Below are positions 10,179-45,084 of a stretch of DNA of 64,000 nucleotides, one piece after another. The notes under the pieces were generated by a model. It was not told where the DNA came from and ran no database searches. It saw only the letters and a program-made list of their open reading frames with translations. The DNA comes from Methanomassiliicoccales archaeon (lineage in GTDB: Archaea; Thermoplasmatota; Thermoplasmata; Methanomassiliicoccales; JAAEEP01), in assembly GCA_046540255.1 (NCBI GenBank), contig JBKHFJ010000001.1, forward strand, positions 146,124 through 210,123, given 5' to 3'. Position 1 is the stretch's first letter. Every line of letters starts with the position of its first letter. The position numbers and the translations under genes are program-made.

Positions 10179-10362
10179 GCGCACGTCCGTCATTTCCTCC
10201 ATGGAGGGGAGATCTGTACGGATAATTCCGGAAAAGCCGTCATAATTTCACCCTTCCCGCCCATCCGGATGTCTTCCCATCCCGGGTGGAGCAAAGCGTT
10301 TAATACCTCCCTTCCAATTATCACCGAATCGCCCTCCCTAGGGGTACCAGAGGTTCAAGGAA

Positions 10363-26857: not shown

Positions 26858-28309
26858 CTACACTATGGGGGTGAGCTGCACCCAACCCCCTCTCTCCCTT
26901 CTCCCGAACGAGATCACGTTGCACTCGGTGAAGGGCTCCTCCCCGTAGAGCAATATGGTTCCGCCGATGCGCTCGATCCTGATGTGGTTGTTGGCCAGGT
27001 CCGCCAGCTGCTCCCGCGACCTGGAAGAGGGGGCGACCAGTCCCACGAAGACCTCCCTTCGGCTCTTCACCGAGGCCAGGTGGTCCATGAGCTGGTCCAT
27101 CACCTCCCGTCCGTAGATGGACTCGATGGTGTCGAATCCCATCAAGGACAGGATGGGCCTCTGCGCCCCCTGCATCCTGTACTCCACCGTCCTCCAGTCC
27201 AGATCGGCGGAGGCGTCGGAGCCCTCCACGGGGAGCACGAAGTTCGCCTCGAAGCTGTCAAGCTGACTGGCGACCGCGGGGACCTTGACCAGGGCGTCGA
27301 ACTCGCCCTGGGGCAGGCCACGGGACACCAGGTTCCGCATCCCTTCCGGGCTCGATTTCCTCAGCGGGCTCCACAGCACCCCCCTCCCGGAGGCGGCGAA
27401 GTTGAGCACCAGGGAGGTCTCTATGGCCTGGGTGATAGAGGTGGGTATCCCCTCCCCCAGCTCGATCATGGTGATCGAGCCCCTCTCCAGGCCGCCACCG
27501 AGCATCCTGTCCAGGTCGGATATCCCGGTGGAGACCATCTCCCCCTGGTCCGGCAGGGGCTCCCAGCCATCCGGTATGTGAAGGCCGCCTGACCAGTCCC
27601 CACCGAAACTCATCATCTTCCCCCCACTCAGGGTGAACATGTACTTGGGCTGTTCTATCTCGCATCCCCTCAGCTTGTGAATATCCATCTCCCTGAGACG
27701 CCTCCGGTGGATCTCCTTGGAGGAGAGGTCGATCACCCCATCCCCCATGTAGTCAAGCTGCCCCTCCTGACTCTCCAGCACGATCAGGAGGTTGGCCCCC
27801 ATCTTCTCCACCAGGTTCCCCTGCAGGACGTTCATCAGGCGGTGACAGGGTATCTCGTACTTCTCCGCCATCGCATCCAGGCTGTCTATGACCACCAGGG
27901 ATCTCTGGGGGAGGTTCTCCTCGACCCTCTCGAAGATCGCCTCCAACTCCTGAAGCTCCCTGCCCAGGGTGAGGGTGATCTCCCCCTCCCCGATGGTCTG
28001 CTCCTCGATGCCCTTGAGGCCGTTCAGCGCGGCACGGGGGTCGCCCCGGTCATCCTCCGTCAGGGTCTGCTCCATCCTCTCCTTCAGCCAGGGGAACTGG
28101 GGGAACAGGGAGGAATCGGACACCCGGGTGGAGATGTAGTATCCCCTCTCCGTCTCGGCCATGTCCTCGATGGTCTGCAGGGCCAGGGTGGTCTTCCCGG
28201 CCCCGGGCCCGCCCCGGAGGATGAGGGAATGGCCCCCGGGATTGTTGAAAAAGCTTACTATCTCCTTGGGTATCCTGAACCCTTTCGATGGGACCATTCG
28301 AGTATTCAC
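26858..28309 (-). CDS. KaiC-like two-domain RecA-superfamily ATPase
   Basis: 483 aa. Domain 1 has Walker A GGPGAGKT and Walker B LVVIDSLD. Domain 2 (ISDLDRMLGGGLERGSITMIELGEGIPTS) lacks the P-loop lysine. Confidence 0.75.
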   Translation of the reverse strand: MNTRMVPSKGFRIPKEIVSFFNNPGGHSLILRGGPGAGKTTLALQTIEDMAETERGYYISTRVSDSSLFPQFPWLKERMEQTLTEDDRGDPRAALNGLKGIEEQTIGEGEITLTLGRELQELEAIFERVEENLPQRSLVVIDSLDAMAEKYEIPCHRLMNVLQGNLVEKMGANLLIVLESQEGQLDYMGDGVIDLSSKEIHRRRLREMDIHKLRGCEIEQPKYMFTLSGGKMMSFGGDWSGGLHIPDGWEPLPDQGEMVSTGISDLDRMLGGGLERGSITMIELGEGIPTSITQAIETSLVLNFAASGRGVLWSPLRKSSPEGMRNLVSRGLPQGEFDALVKVPAVASQLDSFEANFVLPVEGSDASADLDWRTVEYRMQGAQRPILSLMGFDTIESIYGREVMDQLMDHLASVKSRREVFVGLVAPSSRSREQLADLANNHIRIERIGGTILLYGEEPFTECNVISFGRRERGGWVQLTPIV

Positions 28310-39123: not shown

Positions 39124-40650
39124 GTGAGGGTGGACCTCTCCTTCCCACTTCTGATCGGCTACTTCACCCTGGCCGGGGCCGGGATAGGCGCCCTGAGCGG
39201 TCTGGTCCCGGGCATACACGTGAACACCATGGCGCTGATCCTGGTGGCCGTGCAGCCCACCCTTTCCCCTCATCTCCAGGAGGCGTGCGCCGCCTGCGGC
39301 CTTCCCGGTGAGTGCGCCCCCTTCCTGAGCGCCTCGGTGGTGGTCTCCGCCGCCGTGGTCCACTCCTTCATGGATTTCGTCCCCTCGGTCTTCCTGGGCG
39401 CCCCGGACGAGTCCCAGGTGCTATCCGTCCTTCCGGGCCACAGGATGCTTCTGGACGGCAGGGGGTTAGACGCGGTGCGGGCGGCCGCCCGGGGATCCCT
39501 GATCGGCTCCTGCACGGCCATACTGCTGGCCATGCCCCTACACTGGCTGATGGGCGAGCCTTTCCAGATGTACGACCTTCTCAGCCCCTACATCCCCTGG
39601 ATCCTGATAGGGGTGGTGGTCCTGCTCCTGATGTCGGAGTGGAGGAAGGTGATGGTGCTTAAGGTCGAATCCGCCTCCCCCACGGCCTCCACCTCTCTGA
39701 TCCCTCCCCGGGCGGTGAAAGGGGAGTCGGCCCGCCTGAACGGCCGGGTGCGGGGCCTCCCACCCCGGCTGATCACCCCCCAGGGGGAGTGGAGGATCCG
39801 GGGCCGGGCGCCCCGGGGCCGATGGGTGGAGTTGAGGGGCACATGGATCACCGGAGGTCGGTGGGACGGGATGGGATGGGCCCTGCTTCTCTCCCTCCTA
39901 TCCGGTGGACTGGGCTACATCGTGATGAACGCCCAGCTGCCCCTGCACCACCTCTCCGGCCTGGGGGACAGCGAGCTGTTCCCCCTCCTGACCGGGCTGT
40001 TCGGACTGCCCACTCTGCTCCTCTCCCTGGGATCGGGGGAGCTGCCTCCCCAGGAGGAATTAGGGGTACAGGAGGGATCCGGTCCGGCCGTCCGGGGATC
40101 GGCGGCCGGGGCCCTGGTGGGATGGTTCCCCGGGATCACCTCCACCGCGGGGACGGTGATCTCCTCCCTCCTGTTCCGGGAGGGGAGCGGTCCCGCCAGG
40201 TTCATCACCATGGTCTCCTCAGTGGGCACCTCGGCCACCGTGTTCAGCCTGGTGGCCCTGTCCGTCCTGGGCAGGGGGAGGACGGGCACCATGCTGGCGG
40301 TGAAGGAGCTGGTCGGCAACGGCGGACAGGCGGCCCTTTCCTCCCAGCCCTCCTACCACTTCGCCATTCTCCTTCTCTGTGTACTGCTCTCCTCCCTGCT
40401 GGCCTACCACCTGACCATGGTGGGGGGAAGGGCCTTCCTGCGCCTGCTTCGGAGGTTCCCCCTGGAGCGGATGACCAAGGGCATCATGATCCTGGTGGTG
40501 GCCCTGGTCGGCCTGTTCACCGGTCTCCCCGGGCTGATCGTCCTGGTACCCTCCACCCTGCTGGGTCTGGTACCCCCCAGGGTGGGGGTGAGTCGGGTGC
40601 ACCTCACTGGCTGTCTGATACTGCCCCTGGTGGTCTACTTCCTGGTCTGA
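39124..40650 (+). CDS. polytopic membrane protein, TctA/DUF112-like
   Basis: 508 aa with GTG start. The N-terminal GAGIGALSGLVPGIHVNTMA resembles archaeal COG1784 proteins (from memory). Carries an Arg/Trp-rich soluble insertion around aa 175-250. Confidence 0.5.
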   Translation: MRVDLSFPLLIGYFTLAGAGIGALSGLVPGIHVNTMALILVAVQPTLSPHLQEACAACGLPGECAPFLSASVVVSAAVVHSFMDFVPSVFLGAPDESQVLSVLPGHRMLLDGRGLDAVRAAARGSLIGSCTAILLAMPLHWLMGEPFQMYDLLSPYIPWILIGVVVLLLMSEWRKVMVLKVESASPTASTSLIPPRAVKGESARLNGRVRGLPPRLITPQGEWRIRGRAPRGRWVELRGTWITGGRWDGMGWALLLSLLSGGLGYIVMNAQLPLHHLSGLGDSELFPLLTGLFGLPTLLLSLGSGELPPQEELGVQEGSGPAVRGSAAGALVGWFPGITSTAGTVISSLLFREGSGPARFITMVSSVGTSATVFSLVALSVLGRGRTGTMLAVKELVGNGGQAALSSQPSYHFAILLLCVLLSSLLAYHLTMVGGRAFLRLLRRFPLERMTKGIMILVVALVGLFTGLPGLIVLVPSTLLGLVPPRVGVSRVHLTGCLILPLVVYFLV

Positions 40651-42809
40651 TCGAGCAGCCTCTTCAGGGAGGGGAAGTCGTACCCGAAGGGGGAGAGCAG
40701 CTCCTCCGTGGCCCTGATCACCAGGTCGGTGTAGTACCCCGGGTCGTAGACCTCTTCCCCGGTCATGAACTGCTCCACCCTCACCCTCTCCCAGGGGTCC
40801 CTGCTCCCCCGGTCGAGGACCAGGTAGCGAACGCTCTTCCCGGGTGGTATGGACAAGCCCCGGGAGCGGAACTGGCTCAGGGCGGCTACCGAGTCGTTGA
40901 GCTGCCTGTACTCCTCCAGGGGCTTGGATATCCGCTTGCGGACCAGCAGCCTCCCAGGGCTTACCTCCCCCCGTACCAGTGAGGCGGCGTGATCCTCCAT
41001 GACCCGGATCACCTCCGGGAGGGTCTCCAGGAACTCATCCCGGTCCCCCGCATCGGAGAGGAGCCGCAGCATCTCTCCCTGCATCTCCCCGACCAGGTCG
41101 GTGGTGTCGTGCCTGCGGAGGGCGATCCCCCTGGCCTTCACCTTACCGTCATGGAAGAGCCCGTAGTAGCGGTTCAGGGCCCCCACCCCGGTGGTGATGC
41201 AGGGGAGGAACACTATCCAACGGTAGATCCCCTCCAGCTCCAGGGGTATGTCCAGATCCTCCTCCACCTCTCCGCACAGCGCTTCCACCCCCTCCCCACC
41301 GGACACCCACAGGGAGTCCACTATGCCGTGCAGCACCTGGAAACCCCTCCACTCCGCCGCCTCCGCCGCCCGGAGCAGTATCTCCCTCCCGTAGGCGGTG
41401 ATCGACTCGTGGCACTCGATCCTGCCGAACCTGGCGTTCCGGTAGCCGGTGTAGCCGAAGCAGGTGACCAGCACCCACTTAAGGACCCTTGCCCTCTGCT
41501 CGTACACCTCTCGCCTCTCCGGCATCTCCTCCATAAGACGCTTGCAGGCCGCCCTTCTCCCGATCACCGGCTCGAGCACCCGGGGTATGAGCCCTCTTCT
41601 CCTCTGGCACACCGGGTAACCGATCTCCGGCACCCGGTGGGGGGAGCGGGGACAGCAGTCGCACTTGACCGTTTCCGGGGAGATGTTGAACCTGACCATG
41701 ATGTTCGGGTAGAGGGAGGCGAAGTCCAGCTCCGCCACCTCTTCATGAAGACCCACTTGGGGCTCGTATATGAACCCTCCTCGGTCGGAGACCATCAGCT
41801 CCCTGGCGGTCTTGAATCCCTCTGGGAGGTTCTTCTTCCACATGATCAGGTGGCCGCTCCGGACGGCCTCGTTGACCTGCATGGCGGAGATGGCACTCCC
41901 CGGGGAGAGGCGGCACAGGTCCTGGACCGGGATCCTGGAGAGCCTGGAGAGGTCGATGAGCCCGTACAGGCCGCTCTCGCTGTACATGAAGGATGACTCA
42001 CGATCGATGTGGATGCGGCCCCGGAGCTTGCAGGCCGAGGGCTTGTAGAGGATGCGCCCGTAGGTGAAGTAGCTCTTCTCCTTCCCTCTCCTCTCCCCCT
42101 CCCCCCTGCCCAGCCGCAGGTCCATGCCCATCTCCTGGGCCCTCCGGGCCAGGTGGTGGAGGTAGAAGTCGTCCCCTCCCCGGGTGAGTAGAACGTCGGG
42201 ATCCTCCCGGTCCAGCAGCTCCTGCAGGTCCTCCAGGATGCCCGCCTCCTCCCCCTCCAGCACCGCACCGTCCAGGGCCACCGAGCGGATCGGGTCCTCC
42301 GGCGTGGGCAGCCCCCTCGCGGGCTCCACCCCCACCCCCAGCTCGGCCACTTTCAGAGGGGGAAGGGGATAGGAGTGGCGGTAGGGGGAGTCCAGGTTCC
42401 GGTACCCCTCCCCCGCCTCCACCAGGCCCATGGGGAAGACGTCCTGTTCCAGGAAGTACCTCTGGTCGAAGCGGAGGTCCACGTTGAACAGCCGGTAGTC
42501 CCGGTAGCTCCCCCACCCGTCTATCATCCTGGCCAGATCGGCCAGTCGGGAGTAGTCCCCCACCCGGATGCCCAGGGTGGTCCTCTCCCTCCCGTCCAGC
42601 CACACCTTCCTCTTCTCCCTCCAGGTGTCGTGGACATCCACCTTCTCCAGCTTGCCCTCCAGCTCGCCCAGATCTCTCCCGGGGGCCCAGACGTGGATGC
42701 TGGGGGAGAAGGGGTGCACCCTCCTCTCCACCCCGTCCGCGGTCTTTAGCCACACCACCATGGCGTTCCCCCGGTGATCCGGGTAGCAGTCCAGTATCCA
42801 ACCCCTCAT
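40635..42809 (-). CDS. family B DNA polymerase, PolB2-like, with degenerate exonuclease motifs and altered motif C
   Basis: 724 aa. Motif A DFASLYPNIM is intact, motif B reads KWVLVTCFGYTGY, motif C reads HGIVDSLWV (canonical YGDTDS), and RGIALRRHDT is KxY-like. The Exo I position reads VAELGVG (no DxE) and the Exo II position reads GGDDFY. Confidence 0.8.
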   Translation of the reverse strand: MRGWILDCYPDHRGNAMVVWLKTADGVERRVHPFSPSIHVWAPGRDLGELEGKLEKVDVHDTWREKRKVWLDGRERTTLGIRVGDYSRLADLARMIDGWGSYRDYRLFNVDLRFDQRYFLEQDVFPMGLVEAGEGYRNLDSPYRHSYPLPPLKVAELGVGVEPARGLPTPEDPIRSVALDGAVLEGEEAGILEDLQELLDREDPDVLLTRGGDDFYLHHLARRAQEMGMDLRLGRGEGERRGKEKSYFTYGRILYKPSACKLRGRIHIDRESSFMYSESGLYGLIDLSRLSRIPVQDLCRLSPGSAISAMQVNEAVRSGHLIMWKKNLPEGFKTARELMVSDRGGFIYEPQVGLHEEVAELDFASLYPNIMVRFNISPETVKCDCCPRSPHRVPEIGYPVCQRRRGLIPRVLEPVIGRRAACKRLMEEMPERREVYEQRARVLKWVLVTCFGYTGYRNARFGRIECHESITAYGREILLRAAEAAEWRGFQVLHGIVDSLWVSGGEGVEALCGEVEEDLDIPLELEGIYRWIVFLPCITTGVGALNRYYGLFHDGKVKARGIALRRHDTTDLVGEMQGEMLRLLSDAGDRDEFLETLPEVIRVMEDHAASLVRGEVSPGRLLVRKRISKPLEEYRQLNDSVAALSQFRSRGLSIPPGKSVRYLVLDRGSRDPWERVRVEQFMTGEEVYDPGYYTDLVIRATEELLSPFGYDFPSLKRLLDQTRK

Positions 42810-43054
42810 CTCCCCTCCAGCTCCTCCCTGAGCCTCTCGATCTCCTTCTCCTGCTCCAGCAGGATGGAGAGGATCACAGCCTCCACCGGATCGCTCAGGG
42901 CGGCGTAGGAGGAGGCGGAGGAGTGCTTCCTCGCCCTATCCAGCAGGCGATCGAAGGCCTCCCTGTCCTTCCCCCTGAGGGCCCGGCGGAAGGCCTGCCA
43001 GCTCCTAAGTATCGACTCCAGCGTCTGCCTGTGGGTGGGTACGGTCCTTCCCAT
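42806..43054 (-). CDS. small alpha-helical protein, unknown function
   Basis: 82 aa, Arg/Glu/Leu-rich. Overlaps the polB start by 4 nt and begins 4 nt after the RadB-like stop. Codon usage resembles neighbouring genes. Confidence 0.5.
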   Translation of the reverse strand: MGRTVPTHRQTLESILRSWQAFRRALRGKDREAFDRLLDRARKHSSASSYAALSDPVEAVILSILLEQEKEIERLREELEGR

Positions 43055-43058
43055 GGTA

Positions 43059-43772
43059 TCACCCGAACTCGTCCAGTGTGGTCTGGTAGTAGGGGACGGG
43101 GCGGTAGAGCATGGACCTCCCCTCCTTCACCAGGGACAGCATGAGAGCCTTGCTCCTATTCTCCATCCTGAGCACGCTGTCCGCACTGTCGTACATGAAG
43201 GTGTGCATGCTCCTCTTGCAGCTGATCTTGGTCAGCCCGTGGTTGGTGATCAGGGTGCCGGTCCCGTGCCGCTGGGTGATTCCCCTGAGCAGGGAGACAC
43301 AGCGCTTGATGAGCTGGAAGGCCTCCGACCACCACATGTCCCTGTCGTGGAACAGGTCTGGGAAGCAGGAGACGATCAGTGCGGAGCATTCGGTGTCCTC
43401 CACCTCCTTCTCCAGATGGTCCTCGATCAGGGAGACCATCTGGTAGGCGGTGAACGCCCTGGCGATGTTCACGCTGTCCAGCACCTCTCCGGTGTCCATC
43501 CCCAGGCGCTTGCACAGGCCGGCCATGGCGTGGGGGTTGACCGAGTTCCCCCCGTCCACCCAGACCACCTCACCATGCCTCACCGCATCGATGGCCACCC
43601 GGTGGGTGAGGTCGAACAGGAACCGGTCCGAGCTGTCCATCAAGAGGAGGCTGGAGCCCGGTATTCCCCCGAGGAAGGAGTCTATGAAAGGGATCGAGGT
43701 GTACAGCCTGGTCTCCTGGAGGCCCGGGGTCCGTATCACTCCAGCTGCCGGCAAACCTCTGGTGGTGAACAT
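43059..43772 (-). CDS. RadB/RecA-superfamily-like protein lacking Walker A and Walker B residues
   Basis: 237 aa. SIPFIDSFLGGIPGSSLLLMDSSDRFLF aligns by eye to the RadA/RadB ...LD.LLGGG...GE.GSGKT region without GKT. VVWVDGGNSVNP...NIARAFT fits the RadB core. The Walker B strand reads ALIVSCF. Confidence 0.6.
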   Translation of the reverse strand: MFTTRGLPAAGVIRTPGLQETRLYTSIPFIDSFLGGIPGSSLLLMDSSDRFLFDLTHRVAIDAVRHGEVVWVDGGNSVNPHAMAGLCKRLGMDTGEVLDSVNIARAFTAYQMVSLIEDHLEKEVEDTECSALIVSCFPDLFHDRDMWWSEAFQLIKRCVSLLRGITQRHGTGTLITNHGLTKISCKRSMHTFMYDSADSVLRMENRSKALMLSLVKEGRSMLYRPVPYYQTTLDEFG

Positions 43773-44115
43773 CTGCGCTCATGCTTACCACCGTGCGGTT
43801 CTCTAAAAAGGGTGAGCGTGAGGGATGGATGAAAGTGCCCCGTCGAGATCGACCGTTCGCCGCGTGGGACCGGTCACATACCGCGTTGCTTTCCAGAGGC
43901 GGGAAACGGCTCAAGCCGTCGACGGTACCTTTCGGTGGAGCGTCGGGAAATGGATCGTGGACAGGGCATCTGGTCGGGATCCATCAAAATTGGTGAAACT
44001 ACGTCCAAGGATCCGGGTTTTCCCAGGGAGGGCACCGGCGGATCGGCCCATCGGAGGTGGGGAGGGTCAACTCCTCAATCGGTTCAGGTCAAAATGAAAT
44101 ATAGGCGGTAGGACG

Positions 44116-45084
44116 TTGAAGGGGATGATGGGTCCCAAGGTCAGGCTTTCGAACGGCGTGGAGCTCCATGACGGGGAGACGTTCTACTTCGATCCCCTGG
44201 AGCTGCGCCACAGGGGCGTCCACTGCATCTCCCACGCCCACTTCGATCACCTGCCCCAGAAGGTCATGGGCGACAGGGTGGTGTGCTCGGAGCTCACCCA
44301 CCGCTCCCTGTGCCACCGCATCGACCGAACGGTGGAGAGGGTGGAGCATTCCCGGGTGAGGTCGCTGGACGCGGGGCACATCGACGGATCGAACATGTTC
44401 CTGGTGGAGGGGGAGACCAGGACGCTGTTCACCGGGGACTTCTGCAACCGGGACCGATTCGGGATCCGGGGGGCGAGGCCGGAGAGGGTGGACACCCTGA
44501 TCATCGAGTCCACCTTCGGGGCCCCCAGGTACCGGTTCCCCCCGCCGGAGGAGGAGCTGAAGCGGGTGAGGGACTGGGTGGACGAGAACATGTCCAGGGG
44601 GAGATCGGTGGTGCTCATCTCCTACCCGCTGGGGAAGACGCAGGAAACCATCATGATGTTCGAGGACCTCCAGCCCTTCCTCTACGGCTCCGCCCTGCAC
44701 GTGACCCAGAGGGTGGACGAGAGGGGGCTCTCCTACCGTCCCTTCGATAGGGGGCTCGGAGGCCCGTCACTGATCATCTGGCCCACCGGGTCCAGGAGGT
44801 CCCGCCTCCTGGCGGAGATGAAGGATTGGGGGGCGGTCACGGCCGTACTCTCAGGGTGGGCCATGGATCCCTCGTACAGGTACAGGATGGGGGTGGATGA
44901 GGCCTTCACCATCTCCGACCACGCGGACTACCAGGGCCTGCTGGACTTCGTCCGGGACTGCGATCCCTCCCTGGTCTACACCCATCATGGGTTCGAGGGG
45001 GAGCTGGCCTCCGCGGTGAGAAAGGAGCTTGGCGTGGAGGCGTACGCCCTCAAACCGAATCAGAACAGCCTGCTGGACTACTGA
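44116..45084 (+). CDS. metallo-beta-lactamase / beta-CASP family nuclease (short form)
   Basis: 322 aa with TTG start (ATGs at 44125/44128). Has the HxHxDH motif ISHAHFDH, later ESTFG, and a C-terminal ISDHAD...THHG typical of beta-CASP motifs. Confidence 0.7.
   Translation: MKGMMGPKVRLSNGVELHDGETFYFDPLELRHRGVHCISHAHFDHLPQKVMGDRVVCSELTHRSLCHRIDRTVERVEHSRVRSLDAGHIDGSNMFLVEGETRTLFTGDFCNRDRFGIRGARPERVDTLIIESTFGAPRYRFPPPEEELKRVRDWVDENMSRGRSVVLISYPLGKTQETIMMFEDLQPFLYGSALHVTQRVDERGLSYRPFDRGLGGPSLIIWPTGSRRSRLLAEMKDWGAVTAVLSGWAMDPSYRYRMGVDEAFTISDHADYQGLLDFVRDCDPSLVYTHHGFEGELASAVRKELGVEAYALKPNQNSLLDY

Follow-up and report, generated by a model that had tools for sequence, protein, structure and literature searches.

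Three minus-strand genes in the window, the 64-kb stretch of DNA analysed here, which belongs to a Methanomassiliicoccales metagenome-assembled genome, encode a RadA-like protein without a P-loop (iRadA), a small protein (PPB2) and a family B DNA polymerase (PolB2). They form a tightly coupled single unit. The iRadA stop and the PPB2 start are 4 nt apart (TGA-tacc-ATG), PPB2 and PolB2 overlap by the 4 nt ATGA, and Shine–Dalgarno-like GGGTGA and GGAGG sequences stand ahead of both downstream starts (PPB2 and PolB2). A previous reading of the sequence (the original prediction) had taken the three genes for degenerate replication and recombination proteins; the positions, gap and overlap that it gave are exact, as judged from the list of open reading frames (ORFs) and from reading of the junctions. 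The locus is the already described archaeal iRadA-PPB2-PolB2 operon, not a set of dead genes. What is new here is a conserved promoter element of this operon; the rest was already known.

The trio was reportedly first linked by Makarova and Koonin in 2013/2014. PolB2, arCOG07300 and an inactivated RadA were placed in one predicted operon, in archaea and some bacteria, and a complex of the three products was proposed (Makarova et al. 2014, PMC4104785). The partners were later renamed PPB2 and iRadA, and a heteropentamer, PolB2:iRadA:PPB2(3), was modelled in 40 species and named the 'PolB2 mutasome', with 1:1:3 composition (Timinskas et al. 2025, PMC11791011). The linkage of the trio, which the original prediction was unsure had been described, is thus in the literature. 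The supplement of the 2025 paper includes Methanomassiliicoccus operons of type 1a with the same gene order, and the Methanomassiliicoccus sp. trio NLT37497-NLT37499 was modelled with a ranking score of ~0.87 (PMC11791011). This mutasome comes from the same order, Methanomassiliicoccales, and shares the type 1a arrangement, but it belongs to a different species, and the window proteins are ~55-60% identical to the Methanomassiliicoccus-type homologues.

The window shows the type 1a order, with iRadA, PPB2 and PolB2 adjacent and in the same orientation. The sequence hallmarks of the mutasome are present as well: IxD in the polymerase, a lost exonuclease, FxxA...DR, the MGRT arm, a P-loop-less RadA core and a tail resembling a PCNA-interacting protein (PIP) box. 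All three proteins have strong homologues, with E-values down to 1e-88 for iRadA (non-identical matches) and E=0 for PolB2, and the PPB2 search returned 1071 cluster representatives at E<=0.001. NCBI holds entries identical to all three, from metagenome-assembled genomes of Methanomassiliicoccales, in which PPB2 and the RadA-like protein are each called 'hypothetical protein' and the polymerase 'DNA polymerase domain-containing protein'. Correct naming is of some use, since two of the three genes are 'hypothetical' there; the operon itself is one more annotated example.

A neighbourhood survey confirmed the linkage. Related loci were gathered with a PolB2 alignment, giving 67 assessable species-level loci that span Thermoplasmata, Methanomicrobia/ANME-1, Halobacteriota and Theionarchaea. 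PPB2 lies directly 5' of PolB2 in 59 of the 67, while iRadA is adjacent in 53 and set apart by an insertion in 5; the synteny is also seen in complete genomes. In split operons, iRadA and PPB2 stand 1.7-3.7 kb apart, with unrelated genes in the gap (L007, L008, L016, L017 and L034; also L011 and L015). The genes inserted in five relatives encode a beta-propeller protein, an HhH-GPD glycosylase, a lipocalin, a DUF2284 protein and OmdA. This is a miscellany with nothing consistent in it, and a fourth operon partner at this place was rejected. PolB2 genes without a detectable adjoining iRadA or PPB2 also occur (L057, L063, L066, L068, L069, L073-L075, L077 and L079); their partners may lie elsewhere in the genome or be too diverged for the profiles used.

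The three proteins

The polymerase belongs to the PolB2 family (Pfam DNA_pol_B, 7e-29; NCBIfam NF004416, 1.5e-146). Its AlphaFold model has a predicted local distance difference test (pLDDT) score of 89.5, and Foldseek relates it to the KOD, 9N and Tgo PolB structures with a template-modelling (TM) score of ~0.78. Motifs A, B and C and Exo II were read from a residue-by-residue HMMER alignment to P. abyssi PolB, and residue conservation was counted in 69 PolB2 relatives. Motif A (LDFASLYPNIM, against LDFRSLYPSII in P. abyssi) retains its Asp, and D362, S365, Y367 and P368 are each found in 69/69 relatives. Motif B (KWVLVTCFG against KILANSYYG) keeps the Lys and replaces NS with VT, with K444 and W445 again present in every relative (69/69 each). 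In motif C (VLHGIVDSL against VLYIDTDGL) the first Asp has become Ile and the second is retained; H494, G495, I496 and D498 are each conserved in 69/69. The HGIVDSLWV string is identical to an entry in the published PolB2 table (PMC11791011 supplement). The alignment therefore agrees with the earlier description of an intact motif A, an altered motif B, an Ile for the first Asp of motif C and a broken Exo II, and the motif coordinates given then are correct to within 1 nt.

Conservation of the active-site residues in 69/69 relatives, the substituted Ile496 included, is a sign that an active site is under strong purifying selection. IxD in motif C thus reads as an invariant hallmark of the family, not as decay, and the polymerase is not dead as far as sequence can tell. 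Dpo2 of S. islandicus, with IID in motif C, is a robust polymerase that has no exonuclease and extends mismatches and lesion-paired ends (PMC8764526). It is required for damage-induced, targeted mutagenesis in vivo and is reported to be solely responsible for it (PMC7390963). With an IxD that never varies and an active enzyme bearing IID, the claim of a degenerate polymerase is not supported.

The exonuclease active site of PolB2 is lost in all three motifs, and the domain is partly decayed. In a family-profile alignment to the P. abyssi PolB structure, FDIE of Exo I stands opposite RNLDSP. This register is also supported by the model, in which four strands come before helix 188-202, as in canonical exonuclease domains. 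The stretch LKVAELGVGVE, previously assigned to Exo I, aligns to the next beta-strand (PIIMISYADEE), so that the earlier register was shifted by ~18 residues; the lack of DxE was correctly noted, the motif being broken either way. Among the relatives, 49 have D and 19 have E at position 140, whereas position 142 is variable. Exo II reads RGGDDFY against YNGDNF(D/A)F, and Exo III is lost (Y276xxxG280, with ~50 residues deleted) according to the model and the alignment. The replicative PolB3/PolB1 hallmarks, namely DxE, NxxxFD, YxxxD and the DTD of motif C, are absent from the window PolB2, and comparison with solved PolB and RadA structures leaves none of DxE, NxxxFD, DTD or the GKT of RadA intact.

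PolB2 residues 330-343 are the predicted binding segment for iRadA and the PPB2 arm, with FxxA followed by D(K/R). Counted over the 69 relatives, E330, K333, L338 and D342 are present in 69 each, F332 and R343 in 68 each, and A335 in 56. The run F332-K-T-A335...D342-R343 has a low pLDDT of 55-64 in the PolB2 monomer model, which fits a loop that orders on binding. It was assigned to the published motif from the description in PMC11791011 and from its spacing to IxD, 154 aa here and 148 in S. islandicus. Another candidate for the iRadA-binding motif, KSYFTYG (residues 245-251), was dropped, as FKTA...DR (332-343) fits both the published description and the motif C spacing. The C-terminal tail of PolB2 (...LKRLLDQTRK) is without a PIP-like box.

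Many Thermoplasmata PolB2 homologues are longer, at ~895-925 aa, and their best local alignment covers just 62-69% of the query, which suggests an insertion of ~170 aa. One long Thermoplasmata homologue has the intein Pfam domain PF14890.

iRadA (Pfam Rad51, 6.6e-8) is modelled with a pLDDT of 87.6 as the ATPase core of RadA/Rad51/DMC1 without the N-terminal domain, and its best Foldseek matches are RadA/Rad51/DMC1 cores (TM 0.72-0.78). In a profile alignment to P. furiosus RadA (1pzn), DS-SDRFLF stands opposite the Walker A sequence GEFGSGKT, with L52 for the K and F53 for the T, and ALIVSC stands opposite LLIVDS at Walker B. The replaced P-loop and the lost Walker B Asp had been recognised correctly. 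RadB retains its P-loop (Walker A, GxxGxGKT). Since DSSDRFLF takes the place of the P-loop here, the protein is iRadA, and the former label 'RadB-like' was mistaken.

The iRadA tail ends in a putative PIP-like box. Across 48 homologues Q230 and T232 never change, L233 and E235 hardly do, and QTTLDE[FY] is found at the C-termini of iRadA relatives. Clamp-binding motifs have been described in iRadA, and such motifs occur in iRadA or PolB2, rarely in both (PMC11791011); in the window the motif is in iRadA and PolB2 has none. The start of iRadA is ambiguous. The NCBI product has 226 aa and begins at a GTG (43739), 11 codons past the ATG at 43772. The first 18 residues lack conservation and are modelled as disordered, and the ATG is just ~7 nt away from the start site of transcription (TSS) predicted by the TATA box.

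PPB2 corresponds to arCOG07300, and its orthologues in relatives are annotated with Pfam DUF8156 (PF26485). A Pfam scan of the window PPB2 gave no match, and a relative's PF26485-annotated orthologue was likewise unmatched, which makes the null uninformative. Compared with the family consensus MGRTVPT[FY]R, the N-terminal arm has His8 in place of the usual Phe/Tyr; Arg3 and Arg9 are present. The role of the MGRT arm has been set out previously (PMC11791011). Members of the family measure ~80-90 aa, and a three-helix fold that trimerises is attributed to them. S. islandicus PPB2 differs in having Thr9 where the window protein has Arg9.

The activities that appear truly lost from the trio are therefore the exonuclease and the ATPase. 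The idea that no catalytic activity is left, and that the role is purely structural or regulatory, applies to these two and fails for the polymerase.

The promoter element

The sequence 5' of iRadA reads CACTTTCATCCATCCCTCACGCTCACCC-TTTTTAGA. It contains an element with the pattern CAYTTTCR-N5-CYC, placed 21-22 nt 5' of a TATA box in the window and its relatives. A position weight matrix (PWM) was built from the iRadA upstream regions of 24 non-redundant relatives, with the window left out. The window site scores 20.6 bits, the next best site in the window 13.4 bits, and the highest score in 20 shuffled windows is 16.4 bits. The pattern CAYTTTCRNNNNNCYCNC has a single match in the 64 kb, where 0.02 would be expected. 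A second element in the window was rejected, as all other PWM matches (<=13.4 bits) are within the shuffled range. A match upstream of AspRS (10236-10265) was rejected as a regulon site because it has no TATA box at the right distance.

The element is common to most Thermoplasmatota relatives, with TTTATA in the same place and a spacer of mostly 22 nt. ANTTTC followed by a TATA box was found in 35 of 60 iRadA upstream regions, where random or shuffled controls gave ~1 and the reverse strand gave 1. Strong sites in 810 kb of related loci are almost all directly 5' of iRadA, and the pattern matches in these loci are all on the operon strand (40/40). The two halves of a split operon carry an element and a TATA box each, so that the element also stands 5' of PPB2. 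At locus L083, iRadA lies downstream on the other strand and has its own copy, and each of the solo PolB2 genes listed above is preceded by the element. As the PWM was built from iRadA upstream regions only, the sites before PPB2 and before solo PolB2 provide independent support. In Theionarchaea (L071 and L072) a TATA box comes after a variant with one extra T (ACTTTTCCAATGCTC); the pattern used may therefore be too narrow and too strict for the element as a whole.

Other genes are found behind the element. In relatives, strong sites also lie ahead of tandem HARP-domain proteins, of a GyrI-like protein and of a protein of 168 aa without a Pfam match, whose C-terminus is a PIP-like QMSLDRYL. 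When metagenome contigs were scanned motif-first, 20 iRadA promoters and 7 PPB2 promoters were recovered, and with them an Exo VII large subunit gene (L096) and a Hef-like DEAD/ResIII helicase gene (L109). The same scan gave evident chance matches in AT-rich contigs, and it matched unrelated genes, a cytosine methylase and an RND transporter fragment among them. The genes behind copies of the element may together make up a regulon for DNA damage.

The Sulfolobales DNA-damage response element (DDRE), ANTTTC, is bound by Orc1-2 and is required for the induction of damage-response genes (PMC6061795, PMC5817253). Induction of dpo2 in Sulfolobus depends on Orc1-2 (PMC6061795). The window element shares the non-palindromic ANTTTC core (here ACTTTC), followed by R(G) and CTC at equal offsets, and it likewise lies 5' of the core promoter in one orientation only. 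Positions that were not selected for agree with the S. islandicus 20-bp consensus AATAGTTTCRGWDTACTCWS as well (+6 purine, 25/25; +12 C, 25/25; +14 C, 23/25), whereas positions +8 to +11 and -3 to -1 disagree. The two elements differ in placement: the Sulfolobales hexamer is directly 5' of the B recognition element (BRE) and TATA box, at -44 to -39 from the TSS, and the window hexamer would be near -58 to -53 if its TATA box is at the usual position. The window element further differs in its C-rich 3' half, and its regulator is only a candidate.

In the searchable literature, the ANTTTC-type element is discussed only for Sulfolobales, the 2025 mutasome paper makes no mention of promoters, and no description was found of such a DDRE-like damage regulon in Euryarchaeota. 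Whether proteins of the Orc1-2 cluster regulate the damage response outside Sulfolobales was raised by Sun et al. 2018.

Proposed function and control of the operon

Taken as a whole, the locus is probably the Methanomassiliicoccales orthologue of the PolB2 'mutasome' operon, of type 1a, encoding a translesion complex, and its transcription may be raised by damage. By the published models of relatives, the products would form a heteropentamer of a single PolB2 and a single iRadA with a trimer of PPB2. The PolB2 FKTA segment would dock on iRadA as Rad51 subunits dock on each other, one PPB2 N-terminal arm would be inserted between PolB2 and iRadA, next to the DNA, and the iRadA tail might tether the complex to PCNA. 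By analogy, the complex would act in translesion synthesis and would not proofread; its main task would be to extend primer ends that are mismatched or lesion-paired, a step that would come after a stalled replicase or an inserter polymerase. Damage would raise transcription of the operon through a factor binding CAYTTTCR-N5-CYC, the likeliest candidate being an Orc1/Cdc6 paralogue of the Orc1-2 type. The earlier interpretation was half right: the three genes are one unit whose products very probably form one complex, with a specialised repair role rather than one in bulk replication, but the polymerase is not degenerate.

Several known systems resemble this arrangement. The Dpo2 operon of S. 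islandicus and S. solfataricus combines the same three families with IxD, lost exonuclease motifs, the MGRT arm and a dead P-loop, and the Sulfolobus system shares an ANTTTC-type element in damage-response promoters. The window lineage differs in being euryarchaeal (Thermoplasmatota), with a 62% GC genome. Its PolB2 is larger (724 aa), with an exonuclease domain that is more complete though inactive. The E. coli Pol V mutasome (UmuD'2C-RecA-ATP) is a functional analogy, as a damage-induced, multi-subunit translesion polymerase with a RecA-family member and small subunits. Unlike the window trio, Pol V has a Y-family catalytic subunit, an active ATP-bound RecA, LexA control and non-homologous small subunits. 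Eukaryotic Pol zeta (Rev3-Rev7-Pol31-Pol32) is also a B-family enzyme without proofreading that extends mismatched or lesion-paired termini, but its accessory subunits are others, with no Rad51-like subunit, and it is not orthologous to PolB2.

Several points weigh against the translesion reading with damage-raised transcription. The activity of a euryarchaeal PolB2 is extrapolated from sequence-distant Sulfolobales enzymes, and the complex is known only from published AlphaFold models. The PIP-like box of iRadA (QTTLDEFG) has a single aromatic residue. The distance between promoter element and TATA box exceeds that of the Sulfolobus hexamer by ~14 nt, and the mode of action may differ; the C-rich part of the element is partly expected from the 62% GC of the genome. 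No Orc1/Cdc6 gene was found in the 64-kb window or near the operon in Thermoplasmata loci, and there are practically none in the flanks of the 80 related loci. The P-loop ORFs of the window encode a KaiC/GvpD-like protein, an ABC ATPase and a cytidylate kinase, none of them Orc1/Cdc6.

From the likeness of the promoter sequences, damage-inducible control through a DDRE-like element is plausible in this euryarchaeal lineage. The fuller proposal is that the element marks a damage-inducible regulon that takes in the PolB2 mutasome along with Exo VII, tandem HARP proteins, the Hef-like helicase and the GyrI-like protein of relatives, with an Orc1/Cdc6 paralogue as regulator. It is put forward tentatively, its chances coming close to even without reaching that level. 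If it is true, an Orc1-2-centred DNA damage response would be ancient and shared with Euryarchaeota, not confined to Sulfolobales. For the regulation of the euryarchaeal damage response, a short cis-element tied to the one operon known to depend on Orc1-2 in Sulfolobus gives a direct handle.

There is also a substantial chance, though it is not the expected outcome, that the element does have a regulatory function, but one that has nothing to do with DNA damage or Orc1-2-type proteins; it could serve a lineage-specific activator or repressor, with a coincidental likeness to ANTTTC. Its distance from the TATA box is unlike that in Sulfolobus, a core of 6 nt is short, no regulator gene turned up in the window or in the flanks of the 80 loci, and the metagenome scan matched unrelated genes too. 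However, the agreement reaches beyond the hexamer to unselected positions, the orthologous Sulfolobus operon is Orc1-2-dependent and damage-induced, and the other genes behind strong sites are DNA-repair genes.

A role in replication initiation or origin-independent restart together with Orc1/Cdc6, in place of lesion bypass, is unlikely. The arORC2 gene is found in many euryarchaeal PolB2 neighbourhoods (PMC4104785, PMC11791011), and recombination intermediates are places where a Rad51-like subunit could load. Against this, neither the window nor the flanking regions of the Thermoplasmata loci contain an Orc1/Cdc6 gene, and the Orc link is better explained by Orc1-2 acting as a transcription regulator (PMC6061795). 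The other genes bearing the element are of repair type (the Exo VII large subunit, tandem HARP proteins and the DEAD/ResIII helicase).

Least likely is a catalytically dead trio acting as a purely structural or regulatory replisome module, the view of 2008-2014 put forward in PMC4104785 and the main line of the original prediction. In its favour, the trio has lost the first Asp of motif C, every Exo motif and the P-loop. But D362, Y367, K444, D498 and the substituted Ile496, invariant in 69/69, show the pattern of a working active site and not of drift, and Dpo2, which has IID, polymerises robustly in vitro and is required in vivo for mutagenesis.

Feature positions and genomic surroundings

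Table 1. Features of the iRadA-PPB2-PolB2 locus in window coordinates, followed by other element-preceded genes in relatives, in the coordinates of each related locus
Feature	Position	Strand	Details
Upstream element	43815..43844	-	core CACTTTCATCCATCCCTC at 43837-43820; hexamer ACTTTC at 43836-43831
TATA-box-like TTTTTAGA	43802..43809	-	21 nt 3' of hexamer, 29 nt 5' of iRadA ATG
iRadA ORF	43059..43772	-	237 aa
P-loop remnant DSSDRFLF	43614-43637	-	iRadA
C-terminal PIP-like box QTTLDEFG	43062..43085	-	iRadA
PPB2 ORF	42806..43054	-	82 aa
PPB2 N-terminal arm MGRTVPTHR	43028-43054	-	PPB2
PolB2 ORF	40635..42809	-	724 aa
Exo I equivalent RNLDSPY	42381..42401	-	Asp140 retained, Glu lost (P142)
Exo II remnant RGGDDFY	42162..42182	-	N and D lost
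Predicted iRadA/PPB2-arm-binding segment EGFKTARELMVSDR	41781..41822	-	PolB2 residues 330-343; FxxA then D(K/R)
Motif A DFASLYPNIM	41697..41726	-	catalytic Asp362, steric-gate Tyr367
Motif B variant KWVLVTCFG	41454..41480	-	Lys444 retained
Motif C variant HGIVDSLWV	41304..41330	-	Ile496 in place of first Asp, Asp498 retained
Element-preceded gene, L040	8532-9029		
Element-preceded gene, L042	9995-10480		
Element-preceded gene, L030	8662-9168		
Element-preceded gene, L031	3109-3615		
Element-preceded gene, L048	220-687		

The GC content of the operon agrees with that of its surroundings. A mobile-element origin was rejected on this match and on synteny with the ribosomal-protein/SecY/Cbf5 region in complete genomes; the wider neighbours are genes for Cbf5, cytidylate kinase, SecY and ribosomal proteins. 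An Rfam scan found no RNA family near the locus, and scans for sigma-70 promoters and intrinsic terminators gave no matches, in keeping with an archaeal genome.

A convergent TctA transporter gene (39124-40650, plus strand) overlaps the 3' end of PolB2 by 16 nt (40635-40650), and no terminator-like structure was found at this overlap. On the 5' side of the operon lies a divergent gene for a beta-CASP/metallo-beta-lactamase (MBL) nuclease (44116-45084, plus strand). This protein is closest to TIGR04122, 'ligase-associated DNA damage response exonuclease', at 128.9 bits, under the cut-off of 325. Co-regulation of the nuclease gene with the operon was rejected, as it is without the promoter element on its own strand. 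Adjacency of the nuclease and TctA genes is kept only within Methanomassiliicoccaceae, so that plain synteny suffices to explain it. Elsewhere in the window, a KaiC/GvpD-type RecA-superfamily ATPase of 483 aa (26858-28309, minus strand), unrelated to the operon, has an intact P-loop (GGPGAGKT).

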